A stretch of DNA of 64,000 nucleotides from Candidatus Multivorans sp. (GTDB lineage: Bacteria > Acidobacteriota > Thermoanaerobaculia > Multivoradales > Multivoraceae). The stretch is taken from the NCBI GenBank assembly GCA_965247095.1, contig OZ251997.1, forward strand, positions 2,208,001-2,272,000, given 5' to 3'. Below are positions 2,091-59,366 of the stretch, piece after piece; position 1 is the first letter of the stretch; every line of letters begins with the position of its first letter. The position numbers and the translations under genes are program-made. A model generated the notes under the pieces. The model did not search any database, was not told where the DNA came from, and saw nothing but the letters and a program-made list of their open reading frames with translations.

Positions 2091-3752
2091 TCAAGCCTCC
2101 GGCGAGGCGAGTTCGCCCACCGCCCACTCACGCAGTCCGTTGTAGTCGGCCTTGCCATTCGCCGCCCGTCCCACGCTGTCTCGCACCAGGACACGCTTGG
2201 GCGCCTTGTAGGACGCCAGTTCCCGCTTCACCCAACCGATCACATCCGGCTCGCTGAACCGCTCCGGAGCGTCGAGTTCGACCACGGCCGTCACCGCCTG
2301 CCCGAAGCGCTCGTCCGGCACTCCGACACAGACCGCATCCCGCACCGAGGGGTGGGTCTTCAGCACCTCCTCGACCTCCTCCGGGAAGATCTTCTCGCCG
2401 CCGCTGTTGATGCACGCGGAACCGCGGCCGTAGAGCTTGAGCGAGCCGTCCTCTTCGACGGTCGCGTAGTCCCCGGCCATCGAGTAGCGCACGCCGTCGA
2501 CTTCGACGAACATGGCCGCCGTCTTCTCGGGGTCCTTGTAGTACCCGAGCGGGATATGCCCGGTGACGGCGATCCGGCCCAGGACCCCCGAACCCGGTTC
2601 GACTTTCCTGCCGTCGTCGTCGAGCACGCTGGCGTTGTCGCCGAGCACAAAGGACGCCGTCTCGCTGGCCTCGCCGGCGGTCGAGTCCGAACGCCCCATG
2701 CCGATCGACTCCGACGACCCGAGGCTGTCCGTCAGCACCGTCTCCGCCGGGCAGTAGCGCAGGAAGCTGCGCTTGACCTCGGCGCTCCACATGGCGCCGG
2801 AGGACACCACGACCTCGAGGCTCGAGAGATCGAAACGGCCGGGCTGCTCATCGAGCGCCAGGACCATCGGCCGGGCGAAGGCGTCGCCCACGATCGCCAT
2901 CGCGTTGATCCCCTCGGCGGTGATCGCCTCGAGAGTGGCCACCGCGTCGAAGCGGCGGTTGGCGAGGGTGACCACACAGCCGCCGTTCAGCATGCCGCCC
3001 AGCGCGGTGAGGAACCCCGTGCCGTGCATCAGGGGGCAGGCGGGCAGCGAAATGCGCCGCATCAGGAGTTCGTCGAACTGGGGTTTCAGGCCTTCGACGC
3101 CGCCCGACAGGTCGAAGGGGTCGAGGCGGCCGTCGTTGCTGATCTGCCACAGGTCGTCCAACCGCCACATGACGCCCTTCGGCATACCGGTCGTGCCGCC
3201 GGTGTACAGCAGCCACAGGTCGTCGCCGCTGCGCGGCCATGGGGCTTCGAAGGCCAGGGAGTCGCCGGCGGCCGGCGACTGCGCCGCCGCCTGCTCGTAG
3301 GGAATCGCCCACTCCGGACAGGGCCCCGAACCGTCGTCGACCCACAGCCAGGTGTGAATCGCCTGCATCCTGGCCCTCAAAGCCTCGATCCGCGAGGCGA
3401 AACAGCCGTGGAAGACGACCGCCACCACATCCGCGTTGTCCCAGAGATAGAGCAGTTCGCCCTCAACGTAGCGGTAGTTCGTGTTGACCGGCACCAGGGA
3501 GGCCTTGAAGCAGGCCAGCGCCGACTCCAGGTACTCGGGCACGTTGTAAAGGTACTGCGCCACCTTGTCCTGGCGCTTGACGCCGCGCTCGATCAGCGTC
3601 GCCGCCACGCCGTTCGCGCGCCGATGCATTTCGGCCCGCGAGTAGCGGCGGCTCGGGCCGCCGCCCAGGGGATCGATGAAGGCTTGCGCCGGGGCCTCCG
3701 GCTGGTGCTCAGCGATCGCTTCGAGAATGTCCGCGTGATGCCAGTCGCTCAT
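2091..3752 (-). CDS. Acyl-CoA synthetase (FadD19-like AMP-binding enzyme)
   Basis: YTGGTTGMPKGVMW P-loop, GSSE, GD, GRGSACINSGGEKIFPEEVE, YKAPK. Confidence 0.92.
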   Translation of the reverse strand: MSDWHHADILEAIAEHQPEAPAQAFIDPLGGGPSRRYSRAEMHRRANGVAATLIERGVKRQDKVAQYLYNVPEYLESALACFKASLVPVNTNYRYVEGELLYLWDNADVVAVVFHGCFASRIEALRARMQAIHTWLWVDDGSGPCPEWAIPYEQAAAQSPAAGDSLAFEAPWPRSGDDLWLLYTGGTTGMPKGVMWRLDDLWQISNDGRLDPFDLSGGVEGLKPQFDELLMRRISLPACPLMHGTGFLTALGGMLNGGCVVTLANRRFDAVATLEAITAEGINAMAIVGDAFARPMVLALDEQPGRFDLSSLEVVVSSGAMWSAEVKRSFLRYCPAETVLTDSLGSSESIGMGRSDSTAGEASETASFVLGDNASVLDDDGRKVEPGSGVLGRIAVTGHIPLGYYKDPEKTAAMFVEVDGVRYSMAGDYATVEEDGSLKLYGRGSACINSGGEKIFPEEVEEVLKTHPSVRDAVCVGVPDERFGQAVTAVVELDAPERFSEPDVIGWVKRELASYKAPKRVLVRDSVGRAANGKADYNGLREWAVGELASPEA

Positions 3753-4084
3753 GGGCGAAGGAATCTAGCACTCGCGCCCTCATCGGCCGAAACGACTTGC
3801 TCCTGTAGCCGACAACCACGTCAACGTCGCTTCGGCAGCCCCGCGTCTGGCCTTGTCAGCGATCTCTCGTCTTCCTTCGCCCTGAGGCTCCCTCCCACCA
3901 GAGTCTCCCGAACCCAGAACCCCCGCAAAACTACGGGCCTCCTAGTGTCGGGTACCGACTCGCGGGCCCTTCCTACCCCCGCTCTCGTCTCAGCCCTGGC
4001 GCCGCTCGAACATGGCGTCGCTGAACGACGGGCAGGGTCCATGCAAACGGCCAACAACTCCGGCGAGTCGGAAGGAAAGCGACA

Positions 4085-5260
4085 ATGCGTGCCCAAGAAA
4101 CGAAAGAAAGAAAGCGAAACCGATCGAAGTCCAGCCTTGGGCGGCCAACCTGTCTAGCGACCCTGCCTGCGCTAGTGGCCTTGGCGGTTTCGGCCCCTCT
4201 CGCCGCGCAGCAGGGGCGGGATCTGTTGGCTTGGGAAGAACCGCTCCAGATCCGCGGCGAGCAGGTCTTCGTCAAGGAGGCCGTCGGCGCCGTGGCCGTC
4301 TATGAGGTCGGCGACCTCTCGTCCGTCCATGCGACGGCGTCCGAACCCACCGGGGTCGCTTCTGCCGCCACCACGGAGTACAAGTACGACGATGGTACAC
4401 CGGAGTCGTTCACTCGCATCACGAATGCTCATGAACAGGAGTACGCACAGCGATTCCGATTGCCTCGTGCCGGTACCGTCACTTCTGGGACGGTGTCTTT
4501 CGTCCTGACGTTTTACCGCAACTCCGGTGGGCGACCAGGAAGTCAGTTGGCATCGTACTCGGCGACGGCTTCTGGCCTGACCAGAGGCAGTGGGACCTGC
4601 GTATCGGTCGACAGAGGCGACATCACCCGGCAGCGGCTTGCCAGCGGCGATACATGGCTGACCGTCCGGTGGACGAACTCAAGCGGCAAGTTCTTCGCCG
4701 AGGATCGCAACGGACCAGGCGGCACGAGCAACTTCTGGCGGGCCCGATCCTCATCAGGAAGTAGCTGGGGTTCATGAAACGCCGAGACGGTAGCTACGGC
4801 GTACTTCATCCGCCTGGGGGTGGACCACGGCGGAAGCACGCCCGACCCAGACCCGGACCCGGACCCGGATCCGGACCCGGAGCCGCCTCCAATCACCGGC
4901 TGCACTCCAACGACGACGGCGCTCCAGTTCGACGGCGGCTACAAAGTCAGCATGTGCTACCGCACGCCCGCGGGAGAAGAAGGTCAGGCCAAGTCCGGCG
5001 TCTGGGCCTCCGGCCAGTCCGGCATCCTGTGGTTCTTCAACCGGGACAACGCAGAGGTTCTGGTGAAGGTGCTCGACGGCTGTGCCCACAACGGCTACCG
5101 CTGGGTCTTCGTGGCGCCGGTCACAACTGTGGAGTTCAACCTCTGGGTAACGGGTCCGAACGGCGACCGCTGGACCCATAGCAACCAGCAGAATGTGACG
5201 GCGGCAACCAAGAGCGATACGTCGGCATTCAAGTGCGCCGACGAACCCGATGGAGGGTAG
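4085..5260 (+). pseudogene. Secreted protein with Pro-Asp linker and C-terminal 4-Cys domain, interrupted by in-frame TGA at 4775-4777
   Basis: ORFs 4085..4777 and 4820..5260 are in the same frame; read-through gives SSWGS*NAETVATAYFIRLGVDHGG; signal peptide LPALVALAVSAPLAAQ; YKYDDG motif. Confidence 0.75.
4841..4884 (+). repeat. Hexamer tandem repeat (CCGGAC/CCGGAT) encoding a Pro-Asp linker
   Basis: cccgacccagacccggacccggacccggatccggacccggagcc = PDPDPDPDPDPDPEP. Confidence 0.9.
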
Positions 5261-5381: not shown

Positions 5382-8300
5382 GTGAGATCGAAAAACCGCA
5401 GCACTGCGCGTTTTGTCGGAATGGTGGCCATGCTGGCGTTCGCCGGCGCCTCACTTGCGCGTGCCGAGACCGTCTTGAGCAGCGGTGAATACAGCGACTG
5501 CACGCCGAGCGCGGCGGCGTTGGTGTTCGATGGCGGCTACAGCGTGAGTCTTTGCTATGAAACGCCGGAAGGGCTTGTAGGCGAGGGTCGGGCCGGGATC
5601 TGGGCATCGGGCGAGTCGGGGCTGATGTGGTTCTTCAGTCGCGAGAACGCGGAGATGCTGGTCAAAGTGCTCAACGGCTGCGCCCACAACGGCTACCGTT
5701 GGGTGTTCGTGGCGCCCGTAACCGATGTGGCGTTCAACCTGCAGGTCACGAGCAGCCGCGGCAACCGTTGGCTCCACCGGAACAGACTGGGTGACACCGC
5801 GGCGACCAGCAGCGACATCACGGCGTTCGAATGTGAGACGAACGACGCGTACGGGGCGGATCTGACCGTCCGTTCGGTGTCGGTCCGCGACGCCGACCTC
5901 CGGCCGAGAGACTCCTTCACGCTGCGAGTGGTCATCGAGAATCGCGGCGCCAGCGAGGCACCCCCCACCACCCTCAGCTACTACAGTTCGCGGGATTCCA
6001 CGATCACCGTGAACGACCGAGCGGTCGGCACGGACTTGGTGAGGGGTCTCGCCGCGTCCGAGACAAGTACGAACTCGATCAGGTTGACGGCCCCGTCGAC
6101 CGCCGGTACCTACTACTACGGCGCCTGCGTCGACTCCGTGTCAGACGACGGGAACACCGCGAGCCACTGTTCTGACGCCGCCGCCGTCAAGGTGAGCGTT
6201 CCCGAGGCGCCGCCCGGGCTTGAGAGCGAAGTCGACATGGAGGTCGCCTCAGGCGATACGACCACCTGGTTCGTTGGGGTGGCGAACGCCGCCGGCGATC
6301 TGTACAGCTTCGGCTCATGGTCAGACCACGAAGACATCGCCGTCGTGGAGCAGGTGAGAGGTTCAAGATCGGAGCGATTGCTCCTTGTCACAGGAAAGAA
6401 GGCCGGAACGGCAACCATCACGGTTGTGGCCGCCAACAGCCGAGGCGAACCGTCGGGACTCTCGACCTTCGATGTGCGGGTCACGTCGCCCACTTCCGCG
6501 GCACCTGCTCTTGAGGTCGGGCGAGGCGACGACGCGCTCGATGTCGCGTTCCGCACCACGTTGCGGCCCTTGGAAACGCGGGCCTACGACTATCAGATTC
6601 GGCGGCGGAGACCCCAAACCGCATGGGCCGATGTGGGGTGTCAGCCGGTTCGCAACTCGTCGAACAGCGAAGCAACCGGTTCCGTCTCAACCGCGATCAG
6701 CGGGCTTCGGGCCGGTACAACCTACGAAGTGCGGTACCGATCCCGCCGCACCGCATCATGCGACACCGGTTCGCCCGACATCTGGTCGTCGGTGGGTACG
6801 GGCACGACGAGCGGCATCCCGATCAATGACCCGCCGACGTTCCCCGCCACCACTCCGGCGACCGTCTCGGTGAACGAGAACGCCGGCGAAGACATCAATG
6901 TAGGCCTCCCCGTCGCCGCCGTCGACCCCGACGGCGCCCGGGACATCCTCACCTACAGCTTGAAGGGACAGGACGCGGAGAGCTTTCGGGTCGTTCCCGA
7001 AACCGGGCAAATCCGCACCCGTAGCGGTCGCACCTACGACTTCGAGGCTCGGGACACCTACAACGTCACGGTGGAGGCGCGGGATGTGCATGACGAGACG
7101 GCGAGCTTCCCGGTCATGATCGAGATCCTGGACCTCGAGCAGGGTTGCTCCGCACCGCCGAGGCTACGCCTCAATCCCCAAGACCGGCTACTCGTCGTGC
7201 GATGGGATCCACTGGAGGACGACGACGAAACAGCCCCGGTGCAGGGCTACGAGATCGAGGGGCGCACCGGCTCGAATGGCGCCTGGGGCAACCGTGTCGT
7301 CGTCAGGGGGCGGGAGAAGGACCTCGTGTACTTGTCCGGGCTTACGAACCTCCAACGCTATGACGTTCGAATCCGTCCCTTCGGCCCGGAGGGGGATTGC
7401 GATTGGTCCGCACCGGTGTCCGGAATTCCGCAAACGGATCGGTCGCCGCTGGACCGCGAGGACTTTCAGGATCGGCTAGGGCCCGGCGGCAGGCTCAGCG
7501 ACCGGCGTTTCCTGGCAACCGGCAGGTTCAGCGAAGAGACAGACGGCCGGCGTGTCCACGGCAGCTACCACTACGAGAAGACCGGTCCCGACCGGAGCCT
7601 GATTACCCTCGAGTACGACGAGATCGGCCGCTCCGGCTGTTCGCTCTCCCTCTTGTTCTCCTCGCTTACCGCCGGTTCGTTCCTGGACGAATGCAAGGGC
7701 GCCGGTGTGAATACCGGCTTCGACCTCGAGGAGCCGCCACCGGAACCGGAGAATCTCGCACCGCGGAACCAGACGGAGTTCGGGAAACTGGTCCAGGGCA
7801 AGCAGTTCCTACCCGGCCTTCAGATTGGCGGTCGGTATCGCAACCGTAGCGGTACGGTGTCCATCGCTCTTGGTACCGACGCGGTGGTGCATTCGAGACC
7901 CTCAGGTGATGAAGAACGCCCTGTGAGGTCTCGCTTCGGGGGCCATGAATACGAACGTGTCGGCGCCAACACGGCTCGACTCGTCCTGTGCTTCGGACGT
8001 TTTGGATCGTGTAGCCCGGAATTGGACGAGCGGTGGATCTTCGATCTCGAGTTCATCTCCAGCGACGCAGCGAAATACACCGTCACGATTCACCGTAAGG
8101 GTCATGCGCCGCTCACGTTGGACGGGTTCATCGACTTCGGGAGCGGTGACTACCTCAGCAACTTCCCTCCGGAACTCGTACCGCCCGGCCACCCGCCCCA
8201 GGCTGCCGGCCGAGATCTGTTGGGTGTCGACGCCGCGACCGGTTCGACCTCACTGAGCATCGGCGCGGACTCGTTTCAGACCATTCTGCTGCGCGGCGAC

Positions 8301-30161: not shown

Positions 30162-30215
30162 CCCCAGGTCGGCGCCTGGGGCGGCGTCTCGCCCGCATCC
30201 GGCGCGAAGAGCCGG
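30162..30215 (+). repeat. REP-like palindromic element, intergenic copy
   Basis: GGCGTCTCGCCCGCATCCGGCGC, identical to the core of the 38167-38285 copy. Confidence 0.7.
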
Positions 30216-30277
30216 TCCGGCTGGGGCTACAATCGGGGACCGCCTCAGGGCGAGCTTCCGACTCGGGGAGAGAAGTC

Positions 30278-31738
30278 ATGTCCGCAATCACCCGCCGCGT
30301 ATTCCTTGGCTCCGCCGCCGCGGCCGCCGCCACGACCAGTCTGGGCTGCCGCGCGTCAGTGGGCGCCCCGAGCCCGAACGAGGCCCTCCGCGTCGCTGTT
30401 GTAGGACTGCGGAGTCGCGGGAACGATCACCTGAATCAGTTCGCCAAACTGCCCGGCGTCGAGGTCGCCGCGCTTTGTGACGTCGACCGCAACGTCCTCG
30501 AAGCGGCAAAGGCGAAGGCGGTCGAACTCGGCGCCGACCCGATGACGATCGTCGACTACCGCGACCTGCTGGCGCGCGACGACATCGACGCGGTGTCGAT
30601 CGCCACCCCGAACCACTGGCACGCGCTGATGGCGGTGTGGGCCTGCCAGGCGGGCAAGGACGTCTACCTGGAGAAGCCGGTCTCCCACAATGTCTGGGAG
30701 GGACGCCAGATCGTCCACGCGGCGAAGAAGTACGAGCGGATCGTCCAGACCGGCACCCAGATCCGCTCGTCACCGTCGATCCAGGACGCCCTGGCGTGGG
30801 TCAACGAGGGTCACCTGGGCGAGATCCAGCTCGCCCGCGGCCTCTGCTACAAGCCGCGCCAGAGCATCGGCCGGGTCGAGGGCGCCCAGAAGGTCGACCC
30901 CGCGGTCGACTACGACCTGTGGTGCGGTCCGGCGCCGAAGAATCCCTTGATGCGCGAGCGCCTGCACTACGACTGGCACTGGGTGTTCGACACCGGCAAC
31001 GGGGACCTGGGCAACCAGGGCATCCACCAGATGGACATCGCGCGCTGGGCCCTCGGCGAAAACGCCCTGCCGCCGCGCACGATCAGCGTCGGCGGCCGCT
31101 TCGGCTACCTCGACGACGGCAACACCCCGAACACCCAGTTCGTGTACCACGACTACGAGCGGGCGCCCCTGCTGTTCGAGGTCCGCGGCCTGCCGCGCGA
31201 CGCCGAGGCCCAGGCCGGCGAATGGCGCGAGGGCATGGACGACTACATGGGCGCCAGCATCGGCGTCATCGTTCACTGCGAGGGCGGCTATCTGCAGATC
31301 CCGAGCTACACGAGTGCAACGGCGTATGACAAGAAGGGCAAAAAGCTCGAGACCTGGAAGGGCGGCGGCAACCACTACGCGAACTTCGTCGACGCCGTGC
31401 ATAGCCGCCGGGGCGCGGACCTGACCGCCTCGATCGAGGACGGCCACCTCTCGAGCGCGCTTTGCCACCTGGGCAACGTGTCGTACATGCGAGGCGAAGC
31501 TGCCGGGCCCGCCAAGATCGCCAAGGTTGCCGGGAAGCTGCGCAACGCCGGCGATACCGCGGACCGGTTCCTCGATCACCTCGCCAAGAACGGCATCGAC
31601 CCCGAGATCGACCAGCCGATCGTCGGCCAGTGGCTCGAGATCGACCCGGATTCCGAGACGATCGAAGGCGACGAGCAAGCGAACCGCTTGCTCACCCGCG
31701 AGTACCGCGAGCCCTTCGTGGTGCCCGAGGTCGTCTGA
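30278..31738 (+). CDS. Tat-exported Gfo/Idh/MocA oxidoreductase
   Basis: TRRVFL, ATPNHWH, DVYLEKP, GDLGNQGIHQMD. Confidence 0.9.
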   Translation: MSAITRRVFLGSAAAAAATTSLGCRASVGAPSPNEALRVAVVGLRSRGNDHLNQFAKLPGVEVAALCDVDRNVLEAAKAKAVELGADPMTIVDYRDLLARDDIDAVSIATPNHWHALMAVWACQAGKDVYLEKPVSHNVWEGRQIVHAAKKYERIVQTGTQIRSSPSIQDALAWVNEGHLGEIQLARGLCYKPRQSIGRVEGAQKVDPAVDYDLWCGPAPKNPLMRERLHYDWHWVFDTGNGDLGNQGIHQMDIARWALGENALPPRTISVGGRFGYLDDGNTPNTQFVYHDYERAPLLFEVRGLPRDAEAQAGEWREGMDDYMGASIGVIVHCEGGYLQIPSYTSATAYDKKGKKLETWKGGGNHYANFVDAVHSRRGADLTASIEDGHLSSALCHLGNVSYMRGEAAGPAKIAKVAGKLRNAGDTADRFLDHLAKNGIDPEIDQPIVGQWLEIDPDSETIEGDEQANRLLTREYREPFVVPEVV

Positions 31739-32478
31739 TGGGCGGCTGGATCCTCCGTTCCTGGGAACCCGGGTGGCGCGATCCCGTGGCACTCGCCGCC
31801 CTTGGCGTGATCCTCGTCCTCTTCGGCGCCGGCGCCATCCAGGCCCAGTCCGGCGTCCTCGACGGCTACGAACTCGTCTACTCCCAGGACTTCGCCGACG
31901 CCTCGGCACTCGACGACTTCACCTTCAGCGACCAGCGGGCCTGGAAGTACGGCAACGAAGGAGGCCGCGGCTACCTCGATCTTGTAGGCGGCAGCAAGTA
32001 CAAGCCGAAGCATCGCTCGCCGCTCAACATCGCCCTGATCGACGATCTCCTGCTCGCCGACTTCGTCCTCGAAGCCGAGGCCTGGCAGACCGGCCGCGAG
32101 TACGGCCACCGCGACCTCAGCCTCTTCTTCGGCTTCGAGGGCCCGAACCGCTACTACTACGCCCACCTCGCGACCGAACCCGACGACCGCGCCCACAACA
32201 TCTTCCTGGTCGACAACGCGGACCGTGCCCCGCTCGGCGCCATTCCGGACGAGGGCGTCGACTGGGGCAAGGGGTGGAAGCGCGTGCGCGTCGAACGCCG
32301 CGATGGAGCACTTCGCGTCTACTTCGACGGCGAGAAAGATCCCACCGTATCGACCGACCGGGACCCGCTCGGCTGGGGCCGTGTCGGTTTCGGTTCGTTC
32401 GACGACTCAGGGCGCTTCAGCAAGGTGCGGATCTGGGCGCCGGAGAAGAGGCGCGCGCCGAAGCCGGCGTTCAAGTAG
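31738..32478 (+). CDS. Secreted ConA/DUF1080-like beta-sandwich protein
   Basis: TGATG coupling; signal LAALGVILVLFGAGAIQAQ; DFVLEAE..GRVGFGSFDD. Confidence 0.7.
   Translation: MGGWILRSWEPGWRDPVALAALGVILVLFGAGAIQAQSGVLDGYELVYSQDFADASALDDFTFSDQRAWKYGNEGGRGYLDLVGGSKYKPKHRSPLNIALIDDLLLADFVLEAEAWQTGREYGHRDLSLFFGFEGPNRYYYAHLATEPDDRAHNIFLVDNADRAPLGAIPDEGVDWGKGWKRVRVERRDGALRVYFDGEKDPTVSTDRDPLGWGRVGFGSFDDSGRFSKVRIWAPEKRRAPKPAFK
31761..31796 (+). repeat. REP-like element fragment within signal-peptide coding region
   Basis: GGGAACCCGGGTGGCGCGATCCCG identical to reverse complement of 38256-38279. Confidence 0.7.
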
Positions 32479-32836
32479 CGAACCATTGGCGCCCGGCGGC
32501 CCCATGAGCGCGATCCGGCGCGTCGTCTGGGAGTCGGACAGCCGGGCCGGTCGTGTGTTCGACACGGTCGTGCTGTCCGTGATCGTCGGCGGGCTGGTCG
32601 TGGACGGCATCGTGACTCTGGAGAGTCTCGGCCCAAGAGTTCACCAGGTCCTCGTCCTGGCCAGCACAGTGGTCACGACCCTGTTCGTGACGGAGTACCT
32701 GCTGCGCCTCGCAACTGCGCCGAAACGATGGCGGTACGTAACGAGCTTCTACGGCGTCGTCCCCTCTCTGCCAACGTACGTGACACAGCGGCCATCCCGT
32801 TGAATAGTGGAGGGCACACGTTGGCAAGGAGGATCA

Positions 32837-33322
32837 ATGTCAAGACGAGAGCAGAGGTTTGGCGGCGGCTCGGAGCTCCCGGCCGCGGGGGTTGAGGAGC
32901 GTAGCGACGAGGCCCCCGCGGCCGGCGCGGCGCCCGCCGGGGCGGTTCCCGACCCGGAAGTGCTGGCGAGACCGACCAGGCGGCAGTTCACGGCGGAGTA
33001 CCGGCTGCGGATTCTGGAGGAAGCGGACCGATGCACCCACCGCGGCGAGGTGGGTCGGCTGCTGCGGCGAGAGGGTCTGTACAGCTCCCATCTGGCCAAC
33101 TGGCGCAAGGCGCGGCGCGAGGGCGCGCTTTCCGGTCTGAGGCCGAAGAAGCGGGGCCGCAAGCCGAACGAGGCCAACCCTCTGATGCCGAAGGTGAAGC
33201 GGCTGGAAGCGAAGGTCAAGCGTCTCGAGAGGGAAGTCGCCGCCGCGCACACGATCCTGGACGTCCAGGGAAAAGTTGCAGGGCTGCTGGGATTCAGCCT
33301 CGAAGACGGGAAGGACTGCTGA
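32837..33322 (+). CDS. IS3-family transposase OrfA (HTH)
   Basis: RRQFTAEYRLRILEEAD..LLRREGLYSSHLANWR, coiled coil; AGGAGG RBS; G GGA AAA slippery site at 33268-33274. Confidence 0.88.
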   Translation: MSRREQRFGGGSELPAAGVEERSDEAPAAGAAPAGAVPDPEVLARPTRRQFTAEYRLRILEEADRCTHRGEVGRLLRREGLYSSHLANWRKARREGALSGLRPKKRGRKPNEANPLMPKVKRLEAKVKRLEREVAAAHTILDVQGKVAGLLGFSLEDGKDC

Positions 33323-34320
33323 TGGCGGCAAGGTCCCTGGCCCGGCAGGTCGGCGTCGCGCCGGCGTGCCGGGCGCTGGGCGTATCGCGATCGACCTTCT
33401 ATCGTCGTGCGAGGCCCGCTCCCGGGCGACGGCAGCCCCGCCCCACGCCTGCCCGGGCACTGAGCCAGATCGAGCGGAAACGGGTCGAGGCCACGCTTGC
33501 GTCGCCGCGTTTCGTCGATCGTTCGCCGGGAGAAGTGGTGGCCACCCTGCTCGACGAGGGCCGCTACCTGTGCTCGGAGCGCACGATGTACCGCATCCTC
33601 GAAGCGAACCACCCCGTGAGGGACCGCCGCAACCAGCGCGTCCATCCGTCGTACGCCAAGCCGGAGCTGGTCGCTGTCGCGCCCAACCAGGTCTGGTCGT
33701 GGGACATCACCAGGCTGCTCGGACCGCAGACCTGGACCTACTACTACCTCTACGTCCTGCTTGACCTCCTAAGCCGCTACGCGGTCGGCTGGATGGTCGC
33801 CGACCGCGAGAACTCCGCGCTCGCCCAAAGGCTCATCGAGGAGACCTGCCTCAAGCACGGCGTCAAGCCCCATGTCCTGACCCTGCATTCCGATCGAGGC
33901 GCCCCCATGACCAGCCAGGGTACCGCCCAACTGCTCGCCCGCCTCGGCGTGAACCGGTCCCTGGGCCGCCCGCGGGTCAGCGACGACAACCCCTACTCCG
34001 AAGCACAGTTCAAGACCCTCAAGTACCACCCCGACTTCCCCAGCCGCTTCCCCAACCAGGACGCCGCGACCGACTACTGCAGGTCCTTCTTCCCCTGGTA
34101 CAACACGGAACACCGCCATGCCGGCATCGCCATGCTGACCCCCGAGACCGTCCACTACGGCCGGGCGCAAGCCGTGATCGAGCAGCGCCAACGCACGCTG
34201 AGCGCCGCCTGGGAAAGCTCCCCCGAACGATTCGTCGGCGGCCAACCGATGCATACGCCACTGCCCCAGGCCGTCTGGATCAACAAGCCCGACAACGAGA
34301 CTGCAGAGACGACTCAGTAA
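33322..34320 (+). CDS. IS3-family transposase OrfB (DDE integrase core)
   Basis: PNQVWSWDIT, HSDRG, DNPYSEAQFKTLK, WYNTEHRH. Confidence 0.92.
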   Translation: MAARSLARQVGVAPACRALGVSRSTFYRRARPAPGRRQPRPTPARALSQIERKRVEATLASPRFVDRSPGEVVATLLDEGRYLCSERTMYRILEANHPVRDRRNQRVHPSYAKPELVAVAPNQVWSWDITRLLGPQTWTYYYLYVLLDLLSRYAVGWMVADRENSALAQRLIEETCLKHGVKPHVLTLHSDRGAPMTSQGTAQLLARLGVNRSLGRPRVSDDNPYSEAQFKTLKYHPDFPSRFPNQDAATDYCRSFFPWYNTEHRHAGIAMLTPETVHYGRAQAVIEQRQRTLSAAWESSPERFVGGQPMHTPLPQAVWINKPDNETAETTQ

Positions 34321-34885
34321 ATCCAGAACCCCGCTGTGTCAATGTCGTTGACAGGTTCCGCGTCGACCTGGCGGCGATCCTGCCAACCCTGCTCGGCTTG
34401 GACCTGCGGGCGCTACGAGCCTTCAGGCTGTTCAGGCTCCTCCGCCTCTTGAAGGTCACCCGGGCAAAGGCGCTGAATCGCTTCGGGAAAGCACTGTGGA
34501 CCGTCAAGGACGAGGGTCTGATCTTCCTGTTCAGCACAACGCTTGTGTTGTACCTGGCAGCGGCGGGCATCTACCACTTCGAACACGAGGCGCAGCCCGA
34601 GACCTTCGGCTCCATCCCCGAGAGCCTGTGGTGGGCCGTGGCGACGCTTACCACCGTCGGCTACGGCGACGCCTACCCTGTGACTGCTGGAGGTCGCGTG
34701 TTCACAACGGTGATCCTGCTCTGCGGCATGGGCATTGTTGCGGTGCCCGCGGGTCTGGTGGCAACTGCGCTGACTAGAGCAGGGCAGAAGGACGACACGT
34801 AGGAGCCGTAGCGGTCGGCCCGGCTGATAGCTCGAAGCGCCACGACAGTACACCACGAGACAAAGGGCTGCGCCGAGGGCCGGAG

Positions 34886-34952
34886 AGCCGGCGCTTTCCG
34901 CCGGATGCGGGCGAGACGCTCGCGTTCCCAGGGCGGAAGCCGCCAGGCTTCC
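34886..34952 (-). repeat. REP-like palindromic element
   Basis: Reverse strand CTTCCGCCCTGGGAACGCGAGCGTCTCGCCCGCATCCGGCG; matches 57920-57960 and the 38167 copy. Confidence 0.8.
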
Positions 34953-35121
34953 AACGCGGCCTTCTTTATCGACGATGTCGACAACCCGTACACCGGAGCC
35001 CCGGGGACTCATTTCAACTGGATCCAGGGCAACGTCGTCGGCGGCCGGTCGATGGCGCGGCAGTCGTACCGGATGATCCCGGACGGCTACGAGCTCGTCT
35101 ACTCCCAGGACTTCGCCGACG
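34953..35121 (+). other. Chimeric gene-fragment scar: copy of 39739-39868 joined to copy of 31861-31900
   Basis: FFIDDVDNPYT.APGTHFNWIQGNVVGGRS..ARQSYRM from the GMC gene plus DGYELVYSQDFAD from the 31738 gene (39/40 nt identical). Confidence 0.9.
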
Positions 35122-35213
35122 ATTCCGCCCCTAAAACCACACCCCAAAAACGATCCGAGCTAGAATCGGCTCGCCCAACGGCCAGTGCCCGACTCTTAGG
35201 GCGCCCCAGTGAC

Positions 35214-35927
35214 ATGAGCGACACTCCAGAATCTCCAGGCTCCAGCGGACCGAGCGTCCATCTGGCCCAGTTTTCGATAGTCCTCGTGGTGAACCAGATC
35301 GATCCTTCGATCTTCAACCCGGACTTTCTGCGGCACAACCAGATCGTAGACCCCGATTCTCAAGTGTCCGAACCGCCGACCACGACACCGCAATTCGCGC
35401 AGGTTCGCTTCAAAGATGCAGTCGCCGTAAAGGTCGACCCGAAACGAGTGATCTTCGAACAAACCGGAGACCCTCTCCAACCTCGCGAACTCCGGCCTCC
35501 TGGCATGGCCATGCGATTTGCAACTCTCTTCCCCAACGTCGTCTACAAGGCCATCGGCATCAACCCCACCGGTGTTCCATTCCTCGACGGCGCAGTCGAT
35601 CACCGCGTCCACATACGCGACATCTTACTTGATCAGGGCCAATGGCTTTGTTTCAACAACGCGAGACCGAAGCTCAATCTCCACGCTGCCTATCGCTTGC
35701 CGGATAAGAACATAACCCTCGATGTTCTGGATGCCGACTCCTCAGAACCGGAGGCCAGCCCGCGAACGATTGTCGCGTTCCGCGCGAACATCCACCGCGA
35801 GCTGCAAGAGACAGATCAAATCGAGAGAAACCAGCATCTGCTCTCTGTCCTCGCCAAGTGGGACGAGGATCTGAAGGACTTCGAGGCACTGGTCACGAAC
35901 TTCATCTCCAAGAGTACAACGCCATGA
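35214..35927 (+). CDS. Hypothetical protein (possibly TIGR04255-like), gene 1 of three-gene module
   Basis: SIVLV..DPSIFNPDFLR..IV, AIGINP, FRANIHREL; TAGAAT at 35161; ATGA overlap with gene 2; family call is from memory of motif only. Confidence 0.7.
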   Translation: MSDTPESPGSSGPSVHLAQFSIVLVVNQIDPSIFNPDFLRHNQIVDPDSQVSEPPTTTPQFAQVRFKDAVAVKVDPKRVIFEQTGDPLQPRELRPPGMAMRFATLFPNVVYKAIGINPTGVPFLDGAVDHRVHIRDILLDQGQWLCFNNARPKLNLHAAYRLPDKNITLDVLDADSSEPEASPRTIVAFRANIHRELQETDQIERNQHLLSVLAKWDEDLKDFEALVTNFISKSTTP

Positions 35928-36637
35928 ACGAGTCGACCCTTGATCCGCTCCGATCAGATCGAAGCGCGTCAGCACTTCCCGTCATCGCGTCAATAGGCAT
36001 ATGTCCGTCAACCACAAGCGGCTTTGACATGCCTGAGGACCCCATCACTACCGGCCTTCTTGACCACCATACAGCGGTGACTCTATGGGGTTTCGAACCT
36101 CCACCGACAACGTGCGTGATGACCTCCATTCCCCAGGAACGACCATGGGTCGTCACTCAGCTCGAGTACCACCGAGCCGCCCCAGGCGCGACGAGTTCTC
36201 GGAACACTTCGGATCCGGAACACCCCGAACCGACCTTGCCATTTTGGAGCACGCAGCCCGCGAAGGATCCAAAGGACTTGGCTGAAGCGCTAGGAGACCT
36301 TCAGGAGGTAGCCCAGGAAGCTCTCGAAGAGGGATTCCAGCAACCTACCGAGACCGCTGTGAAGAACGCTGCTCGACTAGTGCGGGCCATCTTTGGCGTG
36401 CACCCATGCCGGCTCGAGGTATACCCCACGGCCGACGGTGAAATCGCTATCGATGCCGCCGGCGAGCACCGCGGGTCGGTCATCCTTCTTTGCGCCGCTG
36501 CGGGCGGCGCCCTGTGCCTCGTTAACACGGGCAACGGTAGTCACCGTGCGCGCTACTCCGAGGTAGACCAACTCCCCGACTGGTTCTTGAGCGAGGCCCT
36601 TGCGGAACTTTCTCGTCTGAACCGGGGCGCTGCATGA
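35924..36637 (+). CDS. Hypothetical protein, gene 2 of three-gene module
   Basis: ATGA overlaps at both ends; P/T/S-rich N-half, compact C-half (EVYPTADGEIAID). Confidence 0.7.
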   Translation: MNESTLDPLRSDRSASALPVIASIGICPSTTSGFDMPEDPITTGLLDHHTAVTLWGFEPPPTTCVMTSIPQERPWVVTQLEYHRAAPGATSSRNTSDPEHPEPTLPFWSTQPAKDPKDLAEALGDLQEVAQEALEEGFQQPTETAVKNAARLVRAIFGVHPCRLEVYPTADGEIAIDAAGEHRGSVILLCAAAGGALCLVNTGNGSHRARYSEVDQLPDWFLSEALAELSRLNRGAA

Positions 36638-37053
36638 CCGCACCCGCAGTCGTCCAGTCCGATGAAGCACTCGGGCGTGGCGTCTTCTCGCGGAAAGAAG
36701 CCAAGAGGGCGCAACGTCGACGCAGAGTGCGCCTAAACGTTCTTCTCGAGAAGGCGGGAGTCGCAGAAATCTCAGTTGACCGCTTGGACTGCGCTCCTCT
36801 AGAGAAAGCAGTCAGCCTTGGCGAAAAGGCGGCCCAGAATCGGGTCGGACCCTTCTGTGGATGGGCTGTCGTGAGCGCAGAAGCTGCTGCGGACAACGGT
36901 CGCCGTGTGGCCGCGACCCCACAACCGGAGAACCCGATCCACGCCGATATCGTCTTGCCAGCTCTCGCGGCGGTAGACCGGGAGGAACAGAAGGAGCACG
37001 CTCAGCAACTCGCCGACCTATCCACGTGGCGTGCCCGACCCAGTCAGCCATAG
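36634..37053 (+). CDS. Small hypothetical protein with ART/RES-like motif pattern, gene 3 of module
   Basis: DEALGRGV..EISVDRL..ENPIHADI; 139 aa; ATGA overlap; fold assignment is inference. Confidence 0.6.
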   Translation: MTAPAVVQSDEALGRGVFSRKEAKRAQRRRRVRLNVLLEKAGVAEISVDRLDCAPLEKAVSLGEKAAQNRVGPFCGWAVVSAEAAADNGRRVAATPQPENPIHADIVLPALAAVDREEQKEHAQQLADLSTWRARPSQP

Positions 37054-37159
37054 TCGTAGCCTCAACCTGACAGCCCGCGTCCACTTTGGGCGCACGCCTC
37101 ACCGGGCGTCCGTTCCAGACGTCTAGCGGGCGGCGTGACGTCAACCAAGGAACGTGCCA

Positions 37160-38317
37160 TCACCGAGGAGTCCTGCCATACCGCCCAAGCTCAGCTTCAA
37201 GCTCCTCCGACATGACCTCGCCGTCGTGGAAGAGCAGCCGGTAGCGCAGCCGTACCTCCCCGCCGGCGGCAACCGTCCAGTCCCCCGTGCCCTTCTCCGC
37301 CTTCTCGAAGTCGTGGACGCCGAAGGGGTTGGCGGCGAACAGGCCGTAGGCGCGAGCGTGCCACCAGGTCGGATGACGGAAGTTCTCCGGGTGGTCGAAG
37401 ATCGCGATGCCCACGGGCTTGCCGTCGACGGGGCCGCTGTAGTGGACCCAGGCGGCGCGCTTGCCCCACACCGCGGCGCCTTCGACGCCCTCGCTGTTCC
37501 GCATCGAGCCGGCGGCGTGTTCGCCATCGTGCCGAAGGGTAGGTGCGACGCGGATTGCCATCGTGCCTTCCTTGGTGTCGCCGAGGACGACCGCCGCGTC
37601 GCCGGCCCGTAGACGGATGTCGAAGTCGATCGCCCACCAGGCCTGACCGGAAGCGAAGGCGCCGGCGCGGAAGGTCATTGTCCGTTCTTCGTGGAGAAGC
37701 TCCTCGCCGCCGGGGGCGATCCACGAGTTCGAGGTGCGCAGCACGCCGACCGCACCCGACTCCACCGCGAGGATCTCCCGGTGGACGATCGCCGATCCGT
37801 CGCGGCCGGTCCAGAAGTCGTGGCGCTTGGAGCCGTCGGTCGGGCCGACCGCGCCGTGAGCGAACCACAGGGAGCGGTGATGCGGGTGGTCCTGCTCCTC
37901 GCCTTCCGCCTCGGACATCGGCCAGTTGCGGGTCAGCGCCTGTCCGCCGGGGCCGTAAACCGGGTAGAGGTAGGGCAGGTGGCCGCCGCCGTCCGCCTGG
38001 CCGCCGGGGCGGTACTCGGTGAAGGGTTTGCCGTCGACGGCGACCAGGATGCGGTCGCCGCCGCGCCGGGCCAGTTCGATCTGGGGGCTGGACTCTTCTG
38101 CTGCGACGGGCACGGGAGCGGCGAGTGCACAGAACAGAAAACTGAGGGTCGCGGCGAGAAGCAGATAGCCGGCGCTCTGCGCCGGATGCGGGCGAGACGC
38201 CCGGGTGTCATCCGTGCGCCCGATGACGGCCGCCCGGACTGGTTCGCGGGTGGCGCGGGATCGCGCCACCCGGGTTCCCAAGGGTGCGCGCTCCGCGTCG
38301 GAATAGAGCCGTCTCAT
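37160..38317 (-). CDS. Secreted DUF6807/'PmoA-family' carbohydrate-related protein
   Basis: PYLYPV, DHPHHRSLWF, GDTKEG, WGKRA.W, WHARAYGLFAANPFG; GAGGAG RBS. Confidence 0.85.
   Translation of the reverse strand: MRRLYSDAERAPLGTRVARSRATREPVRAAVIGRTDDTRASRPHPAQSAGYLLLAATLSFLFCALAAPVPVAAEESSPQIELARRGGDRILVAVDGKPFTEYRPGGQADGGGHLPYLYPVYGPGGQALTRNWPMSEAEGEEQDHPHHRSLWFAHGAVGPTDGSKRHDFWTGRDGSAIVHREILAVESGAVGVLRTSNSWIAPGGEELLHEERTMTFRAGAFASGQAWWAIDFDIRLRAGDAAVVLGDTKEGTMAIRVAPTLRHDGEHAAGSMRNSEGVEGAAVWGKRAAWVHYSGPVDGKPVGIAIFDHPENFRHPTWWHARAYGLFAANPFGVHDFEKAEKGTGDWTVAAGGEVRLRYRLLFHDGEVMSEELEAELGRYGRTPR
38167..38285 (-). repeat. Full-length composite REP-like element inside CDS 5' end
   Basis: Three hairpins GGGTGGCGCG..CGCGCCACCC, GTCATC..GATGAC, CGGGCG..CGCCCG; colinear with 61880-62005. 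Confidence 0.85.
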
Positions 38318-39477: not shown

Positions 39478-41172
39478 ATGAAGCAAACCTCCGACACGCA
39501 AACGTACGGCGCGATCGTCGTCGGCTCCGGCGCCACCGGCGGCTGGACCGCCAAGGTGATGACCGAGGCCGGTATGGATGTCCTGATGCTGGAGGCGGGC
39601 CGCGCCTTCGACCCGGACAAGGACTTCCGGGAGCACACGCTGCCGCACGACATGGAACTTCGCGGCCGTCCCGACCCGCGCAACGAGTTGCTGCAGCGCC
39701 GGCGCCGCCAGTCGTACTGCTACGCCTGCACCGAGGTGAACGCGGACTTCTTCATCGACGACGTCGACAACCCCTACACCGAGGCCCCGGGGACTCATTT
39801 CAACTGGATTCAGGGCAACGTGGTCGGCGGCCGGTCGATCATGTGGGCGCGGCAGTCGTACCGGATGAGCGACTACGACTTCAAGGCCGCGAGCATGGAC
39901 GGCTACGGCATGGACTGGCCGATCAGCTACGCGGAGATCTCCCCCTACTACGACCGGATCGAGCGCTACATCGGCGTCAACGGCCGCAAGGAGGGACTCG
40001 AGGTCCTGCCCGACGGCGATTTCCTACCGCCGATGGCCTTCAGTTGCGGCGAGGTGATGCTGAAGGAGACCCTGGCGACCAAGTTCAACCGGCCGATGAC
40101 GATCGGCCGCAACGCGGTCCTGACCCGCCGTCACAACAACCGCGACGCCTGCCACTACTGCGGTCCCTGCCACTACGGCTGCCGGACGAACTCCTATTTC
40201 AACTCGCCGCAGACTACTCTCGTCGACTGCGAAGAGACGGGCCGCTTCACGCTGGTGCCGGACGCGGTCGTCACCCAGGTCGACATGGAGGCGGGCAACG
40301 TCGCCTCGGGCGTCACCTACGTCGACAAGAACACGAACCAGACCCGGGAGGCCAAGGCCGATGTCGTCGTCCTGTGCGCCTCGACCCTGGCTTCGACCCG
40401 CATCCTCCTCAACTCCGCCGAGGGCGGCCTCGCCAACGAGAGCGACTGCCTGGGCCGCTACGTGATGGACCACATCTACGCAACCGGTGTCCGCGGCACC
40501 CTGGAAGCACGCGCAGGCGCTCCCGCGGAGCGGGCCAATCGGCCGAACGGCATCTACGTACCGCGCTTCCAGAACCTGAAGGATCCGGCGACGAAGAGGT
40601 CGGCCTACATCCGGGGCTACGGCTACCAGGGCGGCGAGTCGATCACCACCTGGCAGCACGGCAACTCCCTGCCCGGCTTCGGCGCCGACTTCAAGAAAAA
40701 CGTCGAGTCGAGCACGGTCTCGAGCATCGGCCTCGGAGGCTTCGGCGAGATCCTTCCCCGGGCCGACAACCGCGTCTCGCTCGACCCGGAGAAGACGGAC
40801 AAGTGGGGGGTGCCGGTCCTGCAGATGAACTGCACCCTCGGCAGCAACGAGTACGCCATGGTGCAGGACATCATCGAGGAAGGCCGGGCCATGCTGGAGG
40901 CGCTCGGCTGCACGAACATCACCCAGAACACCGAACCGGCGCCGATTGGCTCGGGCATCCACGAGGTCGGCACTGCGCGCATGGGCGACGATCCGAAGAC
41001 GTCCTACCTCAACCAGTACCAGCAGTCGCACACGGTGAAGAACCTGTTCGTGATGGACGGCGCCTGCTACGTCAGCGTCGGCTGCGTGAACCCGACCCTG
41101 ACCATGATGTCGCTGGCGCTGCGCTCGACGGAGTATCTGGTCGAACAGCACAAGCGCGGAGAACTCGCATGA
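39478..41172 (+). CDS. GMC-family FAD oxidoreductase (sugar dehydrogenase flavoprotein)
   Basis: VGSGATGG, VGGRSIMW, CHYCGPC..GC, IHEVGTARMG, VNPTLT. Confidence 0.92.
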   Translation: MKQTSDTQTYGAIVVGSGATGGWTAKVMTEAGMDVLMLEAGRAFDPDKDFREHTLPHDMELRGRPDPRNELLQRRRRQSYCYACTEVNADFFIDDVDNPYTEAPGTHFNWIQGNVVGGRSIMWARQSYRMSDYDFKAASMDGYGMDWPISYAEISPYYDRIERYIGVNGRKEGLEVLPDGDFLPPMAFSCGEVMLKETLATKFNRPMTIGRNAVLTRRHNNRDACHYCGPCHYGCRTNSYFNSPQTTLVDCEETGRFTLVPDAVVTQVDMEAGNVASGVTYVDKNTNQTREAKADVVVLCASTLASTRILLNSAEGGLANESDCLGRYVMDHIYATGVRGTLEARAGAPAERANRPNGIYVPRFQNLKDPATKRSAYIRGYGYQGGESITTWQHGNSLPGFGADFKKNVESSTVSSIGLGGFGEILPRADNRVSLDPEKTDKWGVPVLQMNCTLGSNEYAMVQDIIEEGRAMLEALGCTNITQNTEPAPIGSGIHEVGTARMGDDPKTSYLNQYQQSHTVKNLFVMDGACYVSVGCVNPTLTMMSLALRSTEYLVEQHKRGELA

Positions 41173-57886: not shown

Positions 57887-59366
57887 CTCCACGGTCCCTG
57901 GCCCGCGGAAGTCTGTCGACTTCCGCCCTGGGAACGCGGGCATCTTGCCCGCATCCGCCGCAGGCGGAGTCCGGATCCGGATCGCACTAGTCGCCCTCGC
58001 CGCCCTCTCGACCGTGGCCTCCGCGCCATCAGCCGCTGCCCAGGACGACAGCCCCAGCTACTACCGCGATGTCTGGCCGGTGATTCAGCAGCGGTGTCAG
58101 GGCTGCCACCAGCCGGCGCAGCTTGGCGGTGAGCTGAACCTGACCAGCTTCGAGGGGCTTGCGGCGGGTGGCATGAACGGCCCCGCCTTGGTGGCCGGCA
58201 AGCCGAAGCAGAGCCGGATGCTGAAGATGCTGCGCGGCGAGATCGAGCCGGCGATGCCGATGCGGAGCGAGCCGCTGGCGGAGGCGGCGATCGCCGCGAT
58301 CAGCGACTGGATCGCGGCCGGGGCCGCCGACGACACGCCCGATGAGGTGCGCCTCGACGTGGCCACCGGGCCGATCGTCTACCGCCAGCCGCCGGTGATC
58401 ACGGCGGTCGCCTACTCCGCCGACGGCGAGTGGCTGGCGGTGTCGGGCAACCGCGAGGTGCTGCTGCACCGCCGCTCGAAGGTCGGCAGTGGCGACAGCC
58501 TGGAGGCGCGCTTCTCAAGCGTGTCCGACCGCATCCAGGGACTTGCCTTTCTCAAGAACGGCCGTCTGGTAGCGACCGGCGGTACGCCCGCCCGCTTCGG
58601 CGAGATCCAGATCTGGGACGTCGACGACCGGAAGCTCCGCGTCTCGACCACCGTTTGCTACGACACCCTGTTCGGCCTCGCCATCTCGCCCGACGAGCGC
58701 CGGCTCGCGATCGGCTGCGCGGACAACACGGTCCGCATCCACCAGGCGACCAGCGGCCGCGAGCTGCTGCGCATGAACCACCACGAGAACTGGGTGCTCG
58801 GGGTCGTCTTCGGCGGCGACGGTCGGCGCATCGTCTCCGTCGGCCGCGACCGCGCCGCCAAGCTGATCGACGCGAACAGCGGCGCCTTCGTCGAGAACAT
58901 CAACCTGTTGCGCGGCGAACTCGCGGCGATCGTCCGCAACCCCAGGATCGAGGCGGTCGTCATCGGCGGCGAAGACCGAGTGCCTTACTACTACAAGATG
59001 GACCGCCCCCGGAAGATGCTGATCGCCGACGACTCGACCCTGGTGCGCGAGTTTGAGCGCCAGGACGGCGAGATCTTTGCGCTGGCGATCGATCCTCGCG
59101 GCGAGCGCCTGGTAGTGGGCGGCGCCGCGCCGACGGCACAGGTCTACGACCTCGAGACCGGCGAGCGCACCGCAACCATCTCGGGCCACAGCGCCGGCAT
59201 CTACACGATGGCGTTCGACCCCACCGGCGCCGAGCTGGCCACGGCCGGCTTCGACGGTTCGCTGCGCCTGTACCGGGCCGCCGACGGAGAGCTGCTGCAC
59301 GAGTTCGTGCCGGTGCCGATCGGGGGAAGCGTCCAGGGCGAGACCACCGCGGGAGGAGCACGATGA
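57870..59366 (+). CDS. Planctomycete cytochrome c domain plus WD40-repeat protein
   Basis: [24 protein letters not shown], then WD40 blades; ATG 57870 start inferred. Confidence 0.85.
57905..57968 (+). repeat. REP-like element within signal-peptide coding region
   Basis: GCGGAAGTC..GACTTCCGC hairpin then CCTGGGAACGCGGGCATCTTGCCCGCATCCG. Confidence 0.8.

Follow-up and report, generated by a model that had tools for sequence, protein, structure and literature searches.

Gene organization of the cassette

A window of 64,000 nucleotides from Candidatus Multivorans sp. (contig OZ251997.1, positions 2,208,001 to 2,272,000 of the forward strand) carries a compact cassette of three genes, here called g1, g2 and g3. 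The window is the whole stretch of DNA that was analysed, and all coordinates are positions within it. The cassette resembles a toxin–antitoxin (TA) locus with an optional third gene. The product of g3 is a candidate toxic effector, the conserved C-terminal domain of g2 (g2C) is its candidate antitoxin, and g1 encodes a candidate helper. The genes and their parts are as follows.

35214–35927, plus strand: g1, 237 aa, acidic (pI 5.3), modelled as a double alpha/beta repeat of TBP-like type; candidate helper that would serve the antitoxin as chaperone or sensor
35924–36637, plus strand: g2, whole open reading frame, 237 aa
35924–36259, plus strand: N-terminal extension of g2, about 112 aa, S/T/P/A-rich, hypervariable in length and sequence among relatives
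36263–36622, plus strand: g2C, conserved C-terminal domain of g2 and proposed toxin-neutralising domain (profile match E 3e-54)
36634–37053, plus strand: g3, 139 aa, proposed toxic effector with the conserved polar set R15, S47, D49, R50, R70, R90, N100, H103, D105 and H122

The three open reading frames (ORFs) are co-oriented and free of internal stops. Both junctions, ccATGAac between g1 and g2 and gcATGAcc between g2 and g3, are stop/start overlaps of 4 nt. An earlier note, made from the letters of this DNA, had described three ORFs of 237, 237 and 139 aa joined by two ATGA overlaps, and the coordinates and translations agree with that description. A longer ORF of 340 aa, which starts at 34905, is the upstream recombination scar read in frame with g1; homologues of g1 begin at the ATG at 35214. 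The ORFs are more than chance, because homologous clusters exist for each (127 for g3, 42 for g1 and 83 for g2 at E ≤ 1e-3) and because the gene order is kept in other genomes.

The cassette is foreign to its surroundings in composition. GC content lies between 0.555 and 0.64 across 35200–37000, against 0.67–0.72 outside. GC content at third codon positions is 0.676 in g1, 0.634 in g2 and 0.629 in g3, below each of nine flanking genes (0.77–0.92), and the earlier observation of a codon usage unlike the flanks is borne out.

Searches for known families

None of the three families has a name in the libraries searched. The window proteins g1, g2 and g3 gave no significant Pfam, NCBIfam or PADLOC match. 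Pfam was equally silent for the 35 g3 homologues of alignment A1 and for 145 further g3 representatives; in these and in the window g3 (P0003), neither the RES domain (PF08808) nor any ADP-ribosyltransferase (ART) family was matched. Forty-one g1 homologues had no Pfam or NCBIfam match, and PADLOC-DB v2 had no significant match to 30 diverse sequences drawn from the three families. PHROGs lacked a family for either g1 or g3; its single weak 18-residue match to g2 (E 0.0037) was disregarded. Sequence-profile searches of the PDB with alignments A1, A2 and A3 yielded nothing meaningful; what A3 matched was a set of designed helical proteins, with E ≥ 0.057. Look-alikes of g3 and g2C in the Protein Atlas were unnamed 'hypothetical' clusters that offered no Pfam lead. 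The earlier proposal of a tripartite TA-like unit built from unnamed families thus stands as far as Pfam, NCBIfam, PADLOC and PHROGs are concerned.

Full-text literature searches returned no description of the three families, although Tables S6–S9 of PMC11232893, which cover genes inserted in hma systems, may list homologues. Neither the three protein families nor the fold of the helper is described in the libraries or papers searched; type II TA loci with an elaboration of the toxin–antitoxin–chaperone (TAC) kind are already known.

One weak signal stands apart. PDLC04576, the PADLOC model for candidate-defence family PDC-M32A, is matched by the window g2 (P0002, E 0.0012) and by P0185 (E 0.0032). 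These are distant members of the g2C family and both match the same part of PDC-M32A (about 258–327 of 375), which may reflect a remotely shared domain.

Distribution and the conserved pair

Relatives were collected by a scan of one genome per species, which returned 140 relatives of g3. Eighty loci were kept (L001–L080), all of them in metagenome-assembled genomes and none in a cultured isolate, and were searched with local profiles of g1, g2 and g3. By record title the loci belong to at least 11 phyla; two are unclassified. Represented among them are Acidobacteriota, Nitrospirota, Rhodothermota, Pseudomonadota (alpha and gamma), Latescibacterota, Thermodesulfobacteriota, Spirochaetota, Binatota, Chloroflexota and Tectimicrobiota. 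Well-supported clades of the g3 tree mix phyla; this is a quick tree that omits L056 and L063, whose g3 is broken. The g3 family comprises 127 clusters at 90% identity by word-indexed search, and at least 1013 clusters at 50% identity by exhaustive profile search (E ≤ 1e-3).

The conserved unit is the g2C–g3 pair. Directly upstream of g3, g2C is present in 79 of the 80 loci, and the two genes overlap or are closely spaced. The exception, L054 (4795–5746), retains a 22-aa remnant of g2C directly before an intact g3. Full-length g1 is found in only 42 of the 80 loci and is therefore optional; L063 and L077 contain pieces of it. The triple that the earlier note had taken as the unit must give way to a pair with a facultative third gene. 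In two loci, L056 and L063, g3 is split while g2C is intact in both. Breakage of the toxin before the antitoxin is the usual order of decay in TA loci.

Four further arrangements were observed among the relatives. (i) Downstream of g3, L054 has a 126-aa ORF that by eye is like an HigA/Xre-type helix-turn-helix (HTH) antitoxin and might be a replacement antitoxin. (ii) L064 carries a second, decayed g2C–g3 copy (216–719), with g2C in two pieces and a fragment of g3, about 4 kb upstream of an intact three-gene cassette. (iii) L032 has a second g2C-like ORF after g3 (5438–5851), giving the order g2-g3-g2'; the additional ORF may encode a reserve antitoxin or mark the beginning of a tandem cassette. 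(iv) In P0187, of 240 aa, g2C is linked to a segment with a match to the C-terminal half of g3, and the locus could be a frameshifted or fused g2–g3.

Many of the named lineages that carry the cassette, Latescibacterota, Entotheonella, SAR202, Binatia, Nitrospirales and Porisulfidus among them, are typical of marine sponge microbiomes, and the word 'sponge' stands in the title of one record. The spread of the family may be taking place inside a single kind of community.

g2, the candidate antitoxin

The alignment across g2 homologues covers the C-terminal half only. This half is acidic (median pI 4.7), and in 28 of the 83 homologous clusters it is preceded by a RelB/DinJ domain (PF04221). The N-terminus of one such homologue, P0185, is up to 72% identical by tblastn to plasmid RelB/DinJ antitoxins annotated beside YafQ toxins. 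Type II antitoxins canonically place a ribbon-helix-helix (RHH) DNA-binding domain ahead of the domain that binds the toxin. Because g2C is fused to RelB/DinJ in homologues, g2 is assigned the role of antitoxin and g3 that of effector or toxin, and we consider it quite probable that g2C and g3 form a TA-like pair. The acidity of g2C, the enzyme-like set of invariant residues in g3 and the breakage of g3 ahead of g2C lend further support to these roles. The variable N-terminal half and compact domain that had made g2 look like an antitoxin at first sight fit this assignment: conservation is confined to the C-terminal domain, and the fusions supply a link to antitoxins.

Three antitoxin layouts are found among the relatives: the bare domain, the RelB fusion and the N-terminal extension accompanied by g1. 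Within the loci, 76 of 77 g2 ORFs hold no known domain, and the 77th, in L029, has TPR repeats. There, g2C forms the end of a 543-aa ORF (3354–4982) whose TPR repeats are N-terminal, through either fusion or ORF read-through. In P0247, a g2C homologue is joined to a segment of a type I restriction–modification specificity subunit.

An effector–immunity pair of a secretion system was also considered for g2 and g3 and was rejected: g3 carries no delivery domain, and the putative immunity gene lies upstream and is fused to RelB in relatives.

g1 and the extension of g2

Where present, g1 always lies upstream of g2, with a 4-nt stop/start overlap in 29 of 43 cases. Its presence is tied to the form of the antitoxin. 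In all 42 loci with g1, g2 bears an N-terminal extension of 83–209 aa. Among 35 loci that lack g1 and have a definable g2 start, 24 have at most 47 aa before g2C and 11 have at least 76 aa. Both forms occur at the same site within single lineages: Latescibacterota same-site groups include L026 and L034 versus L037, L038, L052 and L078, and Nitrospirales same-site groups include L008 and L009 versus L005, L010, L011 and L035. On the quick g3 tree, g1 presence changes at least eight times with good support, and 20 times by parsimony. Together, the same-site groups and the tree indicate that g1 and the extension have been gained or lost together, repeatedly. In Chloroflexota the two-gene form is the rule, seen in 18 of 18 loci. 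One Trp is aligned in 29 of 43 extensions, a weak feature that may be an alignment artefact.

The AlphaFold2 (AF2) model of g1 (pLDDT 88.7) consists of two tandem beta-alpha-beta4-alpha repeats. Foldseek against the PDB returned AdoMetDC/prozyme and TBP structures, with seven matches at E ≤ 1e-3 (7.6e-5 to 1e-3) and TM-scores of about 0.36. As modelled, the fold is a TBP-like double repeat and not SecB-like, and no SecB Pfam match was found in g1 or its 41 homologues; the suggestion of a SecB-like helper is not upheld. Nor does the proposed resemblance to TIGR04255 survive, since none of 41 members matches that NCBIfam model at E ≤ 1.

Two roles for g1 can be set against each other. The first, that g1 acts through the extension of g2, we put a little short of an even chance. 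The second accepts the pair as a TA module and makes g1 a separate DNA- or RNA-binding repressor of the operon, comparable to omega or PaaR, which would supply the regulatory function of RelB. The position of g1 at the head of the operon suits a repressor, as do the TBP-like model (TBP domains bind nucleic acid) and the three alternative antitoxin layouts, which would fit a swappable regulatory part. The TM-score to TBP is, however, only about 0.35, and the g1 family is acidic (median pI 5.1, net charge about −7), which is unusual for a DNA binder and argues against such a role. The strict association of g1 with a long extension in 42 of 42 loci points instead to a protein–protein function. 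On balance a repressor seems rather unlikely. A complex prediction for full-length g2 and g3 with g1 as the scored partner gave 0.00 against a mark of 0.32, a value that counts neither for nor against binding.

g3, the candidate effector

Conservation in g3 was measured over 247 sequences. S47 is present in 100%, G76 and W77 in 99%, R15, N100 and H103 in 98%, and D49 and R50 in 96%. About 90% of the sequences keep R70, R90 and H122; D105 is found in 83% and can be replaced by N or E. The R..SVD..NPxHAxI spacing singled out in the earlier note therefore marks real positions: they are the most conserved residues of the family.

The AF2 model of g3 is confident (pLDDT 91, pTM 0.85), with the element order b1-a-b2-a-b3-b4-b5-a-b6. 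R15 lies in strand 1 (12–17), S47 in strand 2 (45–50) and H103-A-D105 in strand 5 (103–107). ARTs of the R-S-E type carry their catalytic triad on strands 1, 2 and 5. Foldseek against the PDB placed Tpt1/KptA structures (9ldi, 8tfi, 8tfz, 9lda and others) at 9 of the 21 best ranks. The best of these has E 0.095, probability 0.90 and TMq 0.47; the range is E 0.095–0.5 and TMq 0.37–0.47, and none is significant. The ART toxin TreTu stands at rank 11. Tpt1/KptA and TreTu presumably both belong to the ART clan. Among the BFVD matches, likewise non-significant, an RNA 2'-phosphotransferase appears at rank 14.

Because the strand positions are compatible and the fold matches non-significant, ART/Tpt1 is the best single lead for g3 but unproven. 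We regard chemistry of the ART/Tpt1 type, as the model suggests it, as a tentative assignment with the balance tilted against it, and a phosphate-directed nuclease or phosphodiesterase as about equally likely. More broadly, g3 could be a toxin that does not depend on NAD+, for example a metal-independent RNase, a phosphodiesterase or another nucleic-acid-modifying enzyme that uses the conserved His and Arg residues. This is a serious possibility, if short of likely. The conserved R15, R50, R70, R90, H103 and H122 would suit phosphate chemistry in general, no ART match is significant by sequence or by fold, and the type II toxins paired with RelB-type antitoxins are mostly RNases. Against it, Tpt1/KptA and TreTu, with the BFVD match at rank 14, are the only coherent fold signal, and no known nuclease fold is found among the top g3 matches.

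Cassettes within Hma defence loci

Six of the 80 loci are embedded in Hma, and they come from four phyla, with members of Latescibacterota, Terriglobia, Alphaproteobacteria, Binatia and Gammaproteobacteria. HmaB, a DUF1156 methylase (PADLOC E = 0), is encoded directly downstream of g3 in L013, L033, L045, L049 and L056. HmaA, an SNF2 helicase with a NOV_C domain, is encoded upstream of the cassette in L013, L044 and L056. From blastp clusters, L044 also has pieces that are HmaB-like, and L033 and L049 have HmaA-like ones. PADLOC found no Hma model that matches g1, g2 or g3. In each of the six it is carried as cargo, lodged between hmaA and hmaB, and the cassette is not a component of Hma.

PMC8565338 describes Hma as a candidate helicase–methylase–ATPase defence system. 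According to PMC11232893, HmaA protects against T4, and about 66.5% of hma systems hold inserted genes, Septu, PARIS and Ppl among them, in a region that the authors call a defence hotspot. A later preprint reclassifies Hma as a DUF499-centred system related to BREX (10.1101/2025.10.09.681413). Embedding between hmaA and hmaB is a concrete reason to expect anti-phage activity from the cassette.

Beyond the cassette genes, any one flanking family is shared by at most 6 of the 80 loci. The recurrent flanking families that span phyla are the clusters linked to HmaA and HmaB and one cluster of GFO/IDH/MocA oxidoreductases; the rest reflect synteny within lineages. The defence-island context that the earlier note anticipated is thus found in a subset of loci, the six embedded in Hma, but not in the window itself, where the neighbours are metabolic.

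The same evidence bears on whether this is a conflict system at all. The cassette might be a mobile housekeeping or regulatory operon, in which an enzyme is encoded with its inhibitor or assembly factor. The toxicity of g3 is an inference, the genes around the cassette in the window are metabolic, and 74 of the 80 loci have no recurrent defence neighbour, all of which a housekeeping operon would accommodate. It would account poorly for the patchy spread over at least 11 phyla with mixed clades, for the foreign codon usage, for the RelB/DinJ fusions, for the loci in which g3 alone decays, and for the position between hmaA and hmaB in six loci of four phyla. We consider it highly improbable.

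Proposed mechanism

The favoured explanation is a horizontally spread TA-like cassette whose components belong to undescribed families; taken as a whole, we judge its chances to be evenly balanced. Beneath it lie the observed gene order and co-occurrence, the fusions of domains, the foreign composition, the hotspot setting of six loci and the confident fold models; toxicity, neutralisation by binding, contact between g1 and g2, the trigger and the chemistry are inferred. The steps would be as follows. (i) The product of g3 would be a small enzyme with the invariant Arg, Ser, Asp, Asn and His residues as its active site, and its activity would arrest growth. The preferred chemistry would be that of an NAD+-using ADP-ribosyltransferase or a Tpt1-like reaction, on nucleic acid or protein. 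(ii) The g2C domain would bind, sequester and so neutralise g3. (iii) In the three-gene form, the long, variable and probably disordered extension of g2 would make the antitoxin dependent on the translationally coupled g1. (iv) The product of g1 would serve as a dedicated chaperone, as a sensor of infection, or as both. (v) Loss of g1, its titration, or degradation of g2 would free g3. (vi) The likely role would be abortive anti-phage defence, addiction of the carrying DNA, or both.

Several results weigh against this explanation or parts of it. The association with defence genes is restricted: only 6 of the 80 loci are embedded in Hma, and in the window the neighbours of the cassette are metabolic and not defence genes. 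By tblastn at E ≤ 1e-3, g3 had no match in 72,556 plasmid records or 50,697 phage records. The window g2 has no recognisable DNA-binding domain; a separate RelB-like ORF was found neither in the 80 loci nor in the window, and RelB–g2C fusions are likewise missing from the 80 loci. The link between g1 and the extension is not perfectly reciprocal, as the 11 loci of 35 that keep at least 76 aa before g2C in the absence of g1 (L077, with its g1 fragments, and L029, with its TPR read-through, are among them) make plain. The extensions of loci with g1 share no block or clear motif. As to the chemistry, no fold match to g3 reached E ≤ 0.001 in the PDB or in BFVD, the g3 profile (A1) had no match among PDB sequences at E ≤ 10, hhalign of the g3 family profile with KptA of E. 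coli gave a probability of 0.4%, and no RES, DarT or ParT structure is among the PDB matches listed for g3.

Comparison with known systems

The closest parallel in proposed working mode is with TAC systems such as HigBAC and CmdTAC, although the parts are evidently non-homologous and the cassette is not a member of the TAC group. TAC systems also have three genes, and their TA core can occur without the third (10.1101/2024.02.24.581848, PMC11618068). Their antitoxin has an extra segment found only with the third protein; here the extension accompanies g1 in 42 of 42 loci, but 11 of 35 loci without g1 also have at least 76 aa before g2C. An acidic third protein and a defence context are further common traits. 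CmdT, moreover, is an ART, and an ART is the preferred guess for g3.

The differences are equally clear. The product of g1 is not SecB-like and has no Pfam or PADLOC match. The additional segment of g2 is N-terminal and hypervariable, whereas the ChAD segment is C-terminal (PMC6377645). The order here is helper, antitoxin, toxin. As for CmdTAC in particular, g1 and g3 have no match in PADLOC-DB v2, and g2 has only the weak match to PDC-M32A (E 0.0012). The models for CmdTAC in PADLOC v2 carry the name PD-T4-9. With no sequence match to the CmdT, CmdA and CmdC models, the cassette is, as the earlier note had held, not recognisably CmdTAC.

RES-Xre modules (MbcTA, ParST) and DarTG are type II TA modules with NAD+-using toxins. 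As in the cassette, a small toxin is encoded downstream of an antitoxin that can bear a DNA-binding domain. Their toxins and g3 may share the ART-clan fold, with Arg on strand 1 and Ser on strand 2. Unlike them, g3 has no RES or DarT Pfam match and is shorter (about 140 aa), and g2C is a new domain, neither Xre/COG5642 nor a macrodomain. Tpt1/KptA, which provides the best fold matches to g3, also has an active site rich in Arg and His. It is, however, a two-lobed housekeeping enzyme of about 180 aa without an antitoxin partner, and the matches of g3 to it are non-significant. In omega-epsilon-zeta and paaR-paaA-parE, an extra first gene likewise precedes an antitoxin–toxin pair that also occurs alone. 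The difference lies in g1, which is acidic, tied to an antitoxin extension and without an HTH or RHH domain.

Provided that g3 proves toxic and g2 counteracts it, a large TA family of at least 1013 clusters in at least 11 phyla is missing from Pfam, NCBIfam, PADLOC and PHROGs. The paired gain and loss of g1 and the extension would then be a natural experiment on how a two-gene TA module becomes dependent on a third protein. The helper here is not SecB-like, so that control of the TAC type, if it operates in the cassette, would be a convergent design and not a peculiarity of SecB. Should the Tpt1/ART hint hold, g3 would rank with the smallest known toxins that use NAD+. The field often yields new TA and defence candidates, and the cassette is one with an unusual modular history.

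A bolder reading can be built from the same parts. The g1 protein and the extension of g2 would be a second, independently evolved device for chaperone addiction or infection sensing, based on a TBP-like fold in place of SecB, with the rapidly evolving extension mimicking phage proteins that compete for g1. The g3 protein would found a new minimal ART/Tpt1 clade (R-S-HxD) that ADP-ribosylates nucleic acid. Together they would constitute a new anti-phage system of TAC type, widespread in uncultured bacteria and riding in the hmaA–hmaB hotspot. As a single package this is improbable.

Flanks, mobile elements and age of the insertion

The cassette is preceded by two further features.

35151–35173, terminator-like stem-loops on the minus strand: small hairpin carrying TAGAAT in its loop, 41 nt upstream of the g1 start
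34811–35121: left cassette boundary, comprising REP-like repeats and a scar in which pieces of two neighbouring genes form a chimera, detected by self-blastn of the window

The TAGAAT hexamer, at 35161, had been noted as a box before g1. The hexamer is present, but it sits in the loop of the hairpin, and a sigma-70 scan of 34700–37400 gave no promoter-like site.

An insertion sequence, a REP copy and a recombination scar had also been reported beside the cassette, and all three lie upstream of it. The insertion sequence is an IS3-like element (32807–34320) with HTH_Tnp_1 and rve domains, in which orfA spans 32807–33322 and orfB 33031–34320. It interrupts an ion-transport gene (Ion_trans/Ion_trans_2, 32225–34802); the insertion, of about 1.6 kb, is missing in the syntenic locus L001. 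REP-like repeats of 36–62 nt lie within 34811–34952 and recur at 30184–30221, 37817–37852, 38145–38206 and 57907–57960; they are scattered, intergenic and 80–87% identical. The scar has two parts. Positions 34953–35076 are 89% identical to 39739–39868, an internal piece of an ORF like GMC oxidoreductases, and 35082–35121 are 97.5% identical to 31861–31900, a piece of the gene at 31462–32478. The chimeric scar (34899–35121) is also present in L001.

Comparison with two related genomes bears on the age of the insertion. L001, a chromosome of 'Candidatus Multivorans sp.' (Acidobacteriota, Thermoanaerobaculia), is 96% identical in nucleotide sequence over 34361–37837 and has the cassette at the same site. 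L002 is a second Multivorans genome. Its left flank is 83% identical, and its cassette, next to the same left-flank gene, is only 69–70% identical. The quick g3 tree unites the window with L001, L002, L003 and one copy from Nitrospirales in a single clade (99% support). Because of these comparisons and this clade, the cassette is no very recent arrival, foreign though its composition is; the 'recently acquired unit' proposed earlier is only partly right. Judged from these sequence identities, either the cassette changed more rapidly than the DNA on its sides, or a replacement took place at the same site.

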